Below are positions 5,453-6,037 of a DNA stretch of 6,102 nt, piece by piece. The stretch lies in IMG/VR virus record IMGVR_UViG_2617270976_000019. One strand, given 5' to 3'. Under the pieces are notes generated by a model. The model ran no database searches. It was not told where the DNA came from and saw only the letters and a list, made by a program, of their open reading frames with translations. Both the position numbers and the translations under genes were made by a program. This DNA is from a virus (taxonomy: Duplodnaviria > Heunggongvirae > Uroviricota > Caudoviricetes). Within the stretch, counting starts at the first letter, position 1. The number at the start of each line of letters is the position of its first letter.

Positions 5453-5464
5453 ATTCAGGGGGAT
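5453..5464. repeat. Left copy of a 12-bp perfect inverted repeat (ATTCAGGGGGAT) overlapping the invertase stop codon
   Basis: Exact reverse-complement match to 6026..6037, read directly from the sequence. Confidence 0.4.
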
Positions 5465-6021
5465 TCATTACTCTTATTTGCCGGAAATTTTCTATAAATT
5501 GTGGAAACACCCACATCAAAAATCAGTGCAATACGCTGTCTTGATTCTCCGGCCTCGAGTAAACGCCCAATCTGTGCCCACTGTTCGGTGGTCAACTTAG
5601 GACGGCGTCCACCTACTCTGCCTTTGGCACGAGCTGCAGCCAGCCCTGCCCTGGTACGTTCAACTATCAGTTCGCGTTCCATTTCAGCCAGGGCACCCAT
5701 GACATGAAAAAAGAAACGGCCCATTGGGGTACTGGTATCAATACTGTCAGTCAGGCTTCGGAAATTCACACCACGCTGGCGCAACTCCTCTATCAGCGTA
5801 ACAAGATGCCGCATACTGCGCCCCAACCTGTCCAGCTTCCAGACAACCAGCGTGTCTCCTGCCGATAGTGTCCTGAGCAGCTTTTTCAGCCCCGGTCTGT
5901 CGGACTTAGTGCCACTGATTTTATCCTCAAAAATCCGCTCACATCCCGCGCAGTTCAGTGCATTACGTTGCAAATCGGTGTTCTGGTCATTTGTTGACAC
6001 GCGTACATAGCCAATAAGCAT
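5455..6021 (-). CDS. Serine-recombinase DNA invertase of the Hin/Gin/Cin/Pin (Din) family, 188 aa
   Basis: N-terminal MLIGYVRVSTNDQNTDLQRNAL with the catalytic-serine motif, the strongly conserved LVVWKLDRLGRS and TPMGRFFFHVMGALAEMERELIVERT blocks, and a C-terminal helix-turn-helix (…GVSTIYRKF…). The ORF track starts at ATG 6027, but the GGGGGG Shine-Dalgarno abuts that codon; the in-frame ATG at 6021 has about 6-nt spacing and gives the MLIGYV N-terminus typical of the family. Confidence 0.85.
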   Translation of the reverse strand: MLIGYVRVSTNDQNTDLQRNALNCAGCERIFEDKISGTKSDRPGLKKLLRTLSAGDTLVVWKLDRLGRSMRHLVTLIEELRQRGVNFRSLTDSIDTSTPMGRFFFHVMGALAEMERELIVERTRAGLAAARAKGRVGGRRPKLTTEQWAQIGRLLEAGESRQRIALIFDVGVSTIYRKFPANKSNESP

Positions 6022-6025
6022 GATC

Positions 6026-6037
6026 ATCCCCCTGAAT
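6026..6037. repeat. Right copy of the 12-bp perfect inverted repeat (ATCCCCCTGAAT), overlapping the invertase start and Shine-Dalgarno
   Basis: Exact reverse complement of 5453..5464. Together the two copies bracket the invertase ORF almost exactly. Confidence 0.4.

Follow-up and report, generated by a model that had tools for sequence, protein, structure and literature searches.

Serine DNA invertases of the Gin/Cin/Pin/Hin type unite a resolvase catalytic domain and a C-terminal HTH in a protein of about 185-195 amino acids, and the inversion modules to which they belong carry a Fis-dependent recombinational enhancer in the 5′ part of the invertase gene. Within the Gin/Cin/Pin family, the invertases are very weakly expressed. 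For the transposase of IS10/IS50, Davis, Simons and Kleckner reportedly described in 1985 a fold-back inhibition of translation that acts in read-through transcripts. Tail-fibre segments that can invert have been documented before in P2-like E. coli prophages, with inversion reported for such prophages, though not for the exact locus considered here (PMC4272514).

The stretch of DNA analysed here, referred to as the window (6,102 nucleotides), represents the late region of a P2-like prophage (Peduoviridae, Elveevirus) on the minus strand, where the gene order, as assigned with Pfam and read on that strand, is ogr, gpD, gpU, the tape-measure gene and the invertase. Escherichia phage Cartapus and E. 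coli 07-4299 both match positions 5300-6102 with 100% identity, and the same locus is present at 95-100% identity in about 670 complete E. coli records. The invertase gene (5455..6021, minus strand) encodes a Gin/Cin/Pin family protein of 188 amino acids with the catalytic Ser9 in MLIGYVRVS, matching the Pfam families Resolvase (PF00239, 2.3e-53) and HTH_7 (PF02796, 1.5e-15), and its residues 1-184 align to the Gin crystal structure 3UJ3 (E = 7.9e-93). The resolvase catalytic domain with its active-site Ser and the C-terminal HTH are thus those of the Gin/Cin/Pin/Hin group, the records of 100% identity annotate the gene as recombinase or DNA-invertase, and DNA homology to gin, cin and pin spans its 5′ part.

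Other elements of an inversion module can be recognised as well. As in the Gin (Mu), Cin (P1), Pin (e14) and Hin modules, the gene lies just outside the invertible segment, with a 26-bp crossover site (TTTTCATAAACGTTGGTTTGGGAGAA, 6077..6102) that bounds the invertible tail-fibre segment placed 56 bp upstream of the invertase start; the sequence of this site is the same in e14 and in a sister class of invertases of 197 amino acids (the 197-aa class), and aligns with Mu gix. The inverted partner of the site lies outside the window and was sought in two full-length loci that are 100% identical to that of the window (L001, E. coli 07-4299, and L002). No partner was found as a 26-mer with at most three mismatches, and a more diverged one was recovered by an inverted-repeat search, pairing 6778-6805 with 8600-8627 in L001 (1.8 kb apart) and lying at 8260-8334, 1.4 kb away, in L002. 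In both loci the pair of sites bounds the tail-fibre and tail-fibre-assembly genes. The leader and Shine-Dalgarno (SD) sequence of pin and gin are homologous to those of the window's invertase, nothing essential differs from the known modules, and only a short …ANKSNESP tail is particular to the window's lineage; the locus is an ordinary tail-fibre inversion module, of a kind already known, in a P2-like prophage.

What set this locus apart at first sight is a perfect 12-bp inverted repeat, ATTCAGGGGGAT at 5453-5464 and its reverse complement ATCCCCCTGAAT at 6026-6037, whose existence and position, as given in the original prediction, are confirmed from the sequence. The adjacent base is mismatched at either side, so that the match does not extend beyond 12 bp. 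The arms had been said to overlap both boundaries of the open reading frame, and this holds for the stop codon and the SD, which are covered, but not for the true start codon at 6021, which lies outside the arm. A comparison of the arms with the crossover half-site by eye gave matches at about 6 of 12 positions, which is not meaningful.

Chance has to be assessed separately for the repeat and for its placement. The window holds five perfect 12-mer inverted-repeat pairs (two palindromes and three separated pairs), where first-order Markov random sequences yield a mean of 2.1, and this count is no more than chance. Placement is another matter: when a start region of 30 nt is compared with a stop region of 33 nt, a complement of at least 12 nt has an estimated chance of about 2.5e-5 per ORF, the estimated chance that a random repeat pair brackets any of the window's six genes is about 2.9e-4, and in ORFs other than the invertase, across the loci retrieved, start-stop complements are no longer than about 7-9 nt. 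The earlier claim that the placement is not chance-like is thereby upheld in the sense that the placement is unusual for one ORF, while the repeat as such does not exceed chance. The improbability for a single gene, together with the shorter complements of other ORFs, counts against a coincidental origin; such a placement is nevertheless expected in a scan of thousands of windows.

The repeat is very probably coincidental, the G-rich ribosome-binding site being ancestral and the C-rich Ser-Pro-stop run that complements it belonging to a lineage-specific tail. One arm would belong to the ancestral SD and leader of the Gin/Cin/Pin invertase family, whereas the other would be supplied by the UCC CCC UGA that ends a short C-terminal tail, found only in a sub-lineage of P2-like (Elveevirus) prophage invertases; the G-rich SD and the C-rich Pro/Ser codons would then be complementary over 12 nt by chance. 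We infer that the repeat has no function of its own. This reading is favoured because the right arm is identical in the 197-aa class, which has no complement to it, and recognisable in e14 pin and Mu gin, and because 12-mer repeats occur at a random rate in the window and the region gave no match to Rfam. It is further favoured because homology on the left side breaks at about 5440 and 5483, the arms occur in 17 haplotype combinations, covariation is null, diversity is neutral and the tail is dispensable.

The right arm (6026..6037, minus strand) constitutes the SD region of the invertase, reads AUUCAGGGGGAU in the mRNA and ends 4 nt before the AUG. The SD itself, AGGGGGA, lies within the arm, 6 nt before the AUG at 6021. 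The mechanically defined ORF begins at an upstream in-frame ATG (6027-6025, product MIMLIG...), of which the arm overlaps just the 'AT'; no spacer separates this codon from the G-run, and many close relatives (GGGGATTGATCATG) do not have it, nor does e14. The annotated start in RefSeq and in the phage Cartapus record is the ATG at 6021-6019 (MLIGYVRVS, 188 aa), and the true invertase start is this ATG at 6021, not the upstream one at 6027.

Beyond the window's own lineage, the right arm is identical in the 197-aa sister class (L059-L082, L088; about 87% amino-acid identity), and versions of it are recognisable in e14 pin (CAGGGGGAT) and Mu gin (CAGGAGAT). On this side, e14 pin, Mu gin and the 197-aa class can be aligned with the window without interruption, starting in the coding region, crossing the arm and reaching as far as the crossover site, while P1 cin aligns within the coding region alone, from 5480 up to 6021. 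These alignments show that the right arm is older than the left arm and occurs without it.

The left arm (5453..5464, minus strand) is of a different nature. Its mRNA sequence, AUCCCCCUGAAU, comprises the last base of a Glu codon, Ser (UCC), Pro (CCC), the stop codon (UGA) and 2 nt of 3′ flank, so that the stop codon TGA at 5455-5457, preceded by TCC CCC (Ser-Pro), falls inside the arm. It is confined to the class of invertases of 188 amino acids, varies at the synonymous third position of the Ser codon (C/T/G), and sits in a lineage-specific segment of about 40 bp (5441..5482, minus strand) that includes the last nine or so codons, the stop codon and about 14 nt of 3′ flank. The C-terminal tail of this 188-aa lineage, …ANKSNESP, seems to be under little constraint and is dispensable, because frameshift and premature-stop variants fall within it: the C5 run in the last codons is reduced to C4 in some relatives (L054/L106), shifting the frame and giving a 191-aa product, and another (L050) carries a premature TAA three codons early, these sites being equivalent to window positions 5455-5470. 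The 3′ end of the 197-aa class (...GGGACAAATAG CCTGACATC) is unrelated sequence and offers no complement to the SD arm.

Homology on the left side ends at two places. Similarity to an invertase-less P2-like prophage (L086) stops at about 5438-5440, and similarity to the 197-aa class (L088) starts at 5483; the two breaks, at about 5440 and 5483, lie 13 bp outside and 19 bp inside the left arm, neither of them at an arm edge. Both are due to the C-terminal tail, which is variable and comes after the HTH domain. As an observation on the sister class itself, its members (L059-L082, L088) carry a 9-bp direct repeat, CATCTCCGG, once in the leader (GGCATCATCTCCGG) and once 8 nt past the stop codon (CCTGACATCTCCGG). 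This direct repeat bracketing the 197-aa-class gene is probably due to chance (about 2e-3 per gene), and could also be an old recombination joint.

Conservation among relatives was assessed on 80 loci collected by protein similarity and a further 91 collected by a class-specific 27-mer, which adjoins the left arm without overlapping it, the latter sample being unbiased as to the arms. Deduplication of the close class gave 83 unique gene-region sequences, in which the arms occur in 17 haplotype combinations. The repeat is perfect in 30 of these sequences, altered by G-U changes alone in 9 and disrupted by true mismatches in 44, including a G-G in the centre and disruptions of two bases at the inner end. 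Only one pair is changed on both sides, being G:C in 57 sequences, G:T in 11, A:T in 5, A:C in 4 and G:G in 6. A compensatory change at this pair was considered on the first 55 loci, where an A at position 9 of the SD arm always stood opposite T, and was rejected when the larger sample added A:C.

Statistical comparison led to the same picture. Across 39 distinct arm-region rows, pairing amounts to 90.2% of cells against 90.1% after shuffling (281 of 500 shuffles reach the observed value) and the covariation score is 0.046 against 0.041 (94 of 500 shuffles), figures that come from close relatives 97-100% identical in protein and thus have limited power to detect selection. Nucleotide diversity is 0.113 and 0.055 in the two arms, 0.070 at synonymous third positions and 0.073 in the rest of the leader. 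By this measure the arms are as polymorphic as synonymous sites, and no conservation of them is apparent; moreover, the haplotypes show the arms drifting independently among the relatives, with no sign of enforced co-variation. Pairing over the ribosome-binding site is thus kept in relatives neither by conservation nor by compensation.

The likeliest rival, though a very unlikely one, is a translational lock, in which a long-range helix forms within the invertase's own mRNA, the finished 3′ end pairing with the SD and stopping initiation; invertase level and inversion frequency would be kept very low in the sub-lineage, the SD being free during transcription only. Folding of the 667-nt mRNA of the window's haplotype places the 12-bp helix in the MFE fold with pair probabilities of 0.72-0.999, although prediction of a helix over a 560-nt range is unreliable. 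The arm duplex is calculated at -23.6 kcal/mol, enforcing the helix costs 0 kcal/mol, and the best duplex partner of the SD region anywhere in the mRNA is the 3′ end (-24.4 versus a median of -12.7), so that stable pairing over the SD is predicted for this haplotype. About three quarters of the unique close-class mRNAs keep the pairing of SD and 3′ end in their MFE folds, one position displays a G:C > G:U > A:U series, and the low expression of invertases of this family would suit such a device. The strength of the predicted helix (pair probabilities of about 0.99 in the MFE fold), the 3′ end being the best partner of the SD, the retention of the pairing in most close-class MFE folds and the base-pair series are points that weigh against coincidence.

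Any perfect GC-rich 12-mer would fold in this manner, however, and the fold is thus no evidence of selection. Against a lock stand the covariation that does not rise above shuffles, the 44 mismatched sequences among 83 and the neutral-like variability of the arms, and ribosomes passing the stop codon would, in addition, keep opening the helix. Furthermore, a 3′ partner is absent from sister classes whose SD is identical: among the other invertase classes, the SD is paired locally or mid-gene, and in the 197-aa and 184-aa classes locally. Independent 3′ anti-SD segments were considered in e14 pin and in one further locus (L075) on the basis of their MFE folds and rejected, as these 3′ pairings are weak, bulged and rich in G-U and do not involve the best partners of the SD; in L075 the partner of the SD in the MFE fold consists of conserved Phe-Pro codons. 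A scan of the region against Rfam returned no family, and a permissive E-value gave a meaningless lncRNA match (E = 0.59).

In the perfect-repeat sub-lineage specifically, the folding models would allow the 3′ end to lock the ribosome-binding site in the 12-bp helix and to limit translation to a brief co-transcriptional period, a proposition to which we assign a very low probability. That the helix in perfect-repeat haplotypes lowers translation at all, whether as a physical side effect or as a very young regulatory feature, is likewise very improbable, and there is no sign of selection for such an effect. Were the repeat functional, it would represent a new way to throttle a site-specific recombinase; a self-closing mRNA, if true, would act as a self-timing limiter of recombinase dose that sets the rate of tail-fibre switching, and might be recent and polymorphic, with prophage haplotypes switching at different frequencies.

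A related proposal of the original prediction, that the repeat sequesters the ribosome-binding site in read-through transcripts, fails on the position of the arms, both of which lie inside the ORF's own transcript. Since the partner arm is located at the 3′ end of the same ORF, pairing cannot separate read-through from native mRNA; the folding check that had been suggested gave pairing of the downstream arm with the SD in the full mRNA, but this pairing is not specific to read-through. The case can be compared with IS10/IS50. In both, the ribosome-binding site has a complement with which it can form a stable helix and so be sequestered; in IS10, however, the complement lies upstream of the element's own transcription start, so that only externally initiated transcripts fold back, whereas in the window it lies at the 3′ end of the same ORF and is not conserved.

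The 5′ leader contains a secondary structure of its own. A terminator-like hairpin, AACUGGCAUCAUCUCCGGUU followed by a U-run, is situated just upstream of the SD (6041..6060, minus strand; 6761-6742 in L001), with the U-run, UUUUUAUU, extending to about 6031, and the whole hairpin thus lies between the crossover site and the SD. Its core, GGCATCAT, is conserved in e14 pin, and Mu gin is similar (GGCATGAT). When folded locally, CAUCAUCUCC is paired with both the SD and the start codon; the predicted pairing is between CAUCAUCUCC and GGGGAUGA, AUG included, and sequesters the SD in short folds, while the fold of the 90-nt leader (-24.8 kcal/mol) has both SD and AUG locally paired. The leader hairpin might insulate the invertase from late read-through transcription, or might damp its translation.

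It is very unlikely that the left arm is a non-functional scar, left when illegitimate recombination or repair copied a few leader bases in inverted orientation into the class-specific 3′ tail. The arm does lie within the segment of about 40 bp that has no homology to sister classes or to invertase-less phages, which is where a junction would be expected. However, the match ends at exactly 12 bp with nothing further on either side, no donor or intermediate was found, and for so short a tract a scar adds nothing over coincidence.

That the arms are terminal inverted repeats at the ends of a mobile or recombined cassette which brought in the invertase gene, a boundary role that the original prediction had also put forward, is extremely improbable: the arms do lie within a few bases of either end of the ORF, and the break against invertase-less P2-like prophages is only about 13 bp beyond the left arm, but homology with e14 pin, Mu gin and the 197-aa class is uninterrupted across the right arm, the whole sister class has the right arm without the left, the left-side breaks miss the arm edges, and there is no target-site duplication around the arms (the flanks AATGCTG and AAAAACC are unrelated). 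Breaks of homology at the outer edges of both repeats, and the joint occurrence of both arms in relatives with a flanking target duplication, are therefore not what the alignments contain; instead, 53 of the 83 unique close relatives lack the perfect repeat and are collinear through both arms, the outcome that had been named in advance as a refutation and that here refutes a cassette boundary. The true unit of exchange is the whole module of invertase and invertible tail-fibre segment, which extends for kilobases to its other end in the tail-fibre gene, rather than the 585-bp interval between the arms, and the 567-bp serine invertase gene has no transposition function. The window's repeat resembles the terminal inverted repeats of IS elements and MITEs in that short inverted repeats end a gene-sized unit, and departs from them in having no target duplication, no break at the arm edges, no transposase and arms that are separable.

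Coincidence is hence the only one of the three readings originally offered to survive, and the case provides a useful negative: a striking repeat that brackets an ORF can arise from a conserved G-rich ribosome-binding site and a C-rich codon run.

Several observations concern the surroundings of the gene. Next to the invertase, the region upstream of the tail-sheath operon (5313..5440, minus strand) is conserved and common to invertase-less P2-like prophages, with 97% identity to L086 up to about 5438. Within this block, upstream of the tail-sheath start, a TGT-N12-ACA dyad (TGTACCGTTATTCACACA) is found at 5389-5406, which we take to be a candidate Ogr-dependent P2 late-promoter motif. Only about 14 nt, with no terminator among them, separate the conserved block from the stop codon of the invertase.

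The intact locus of E. coli 07-4299 contains 1,838 bp that are deleted from the window, the junction being at 5261: window positions 1139-5261 correspond to L001 1-4123 and positions 5261-6102 to L001 5962-6803, the two matches overlapping by 1 nt. The tail sheath gene is mostly removed, the tail tube gene entirely and the tail assembly chaperone at its start, and an in-frame fusion of 71 amino acids is left (window 5097-5312) that joins the sheath N-terminus, MAQDYHHGVRVVEVNEG, to the chaperone C-terminus. Judged by this loss of genes, the window's prophage is tail-defective. In a search of 5,426 complete E. coli genomes no record spans the junction at 5261, which means that the source of the window's prophage is not among them. 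An independent P2-like prophage, L086 in E. coli 455, has lost a different internal stretch, with the result that truncated sheath and tube genes, each annotated as a pseudogene, are fused; this suggests recurrent decay of the sheath/tube region in such prophages.

The window ends exactly with the crossover site (6077-6102), as would be expected of an assembly break at an invertible segment present in mixed orientation. Three other loci (L087, from E. coli 20KM2300, L095 and L099) retain just the 3′ part of the invertase, an HTH remnant of about 100 bp equivalent to window 5455-5562, joined directly to the tail-fibre assembly gene; they are presumably deletion derivatives with the tail-fibre segment frozen in one orientation. 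Finally, a 4,025-bp viral record (IMGVR_UViG_2585427756_000014, L161) contains the invertase 3′-end motif twice, at 701-727 (minus strand) and 3820-3846 (plus strand), with identical leaders, and represents either two facing invertase genes or an assembly artefact.
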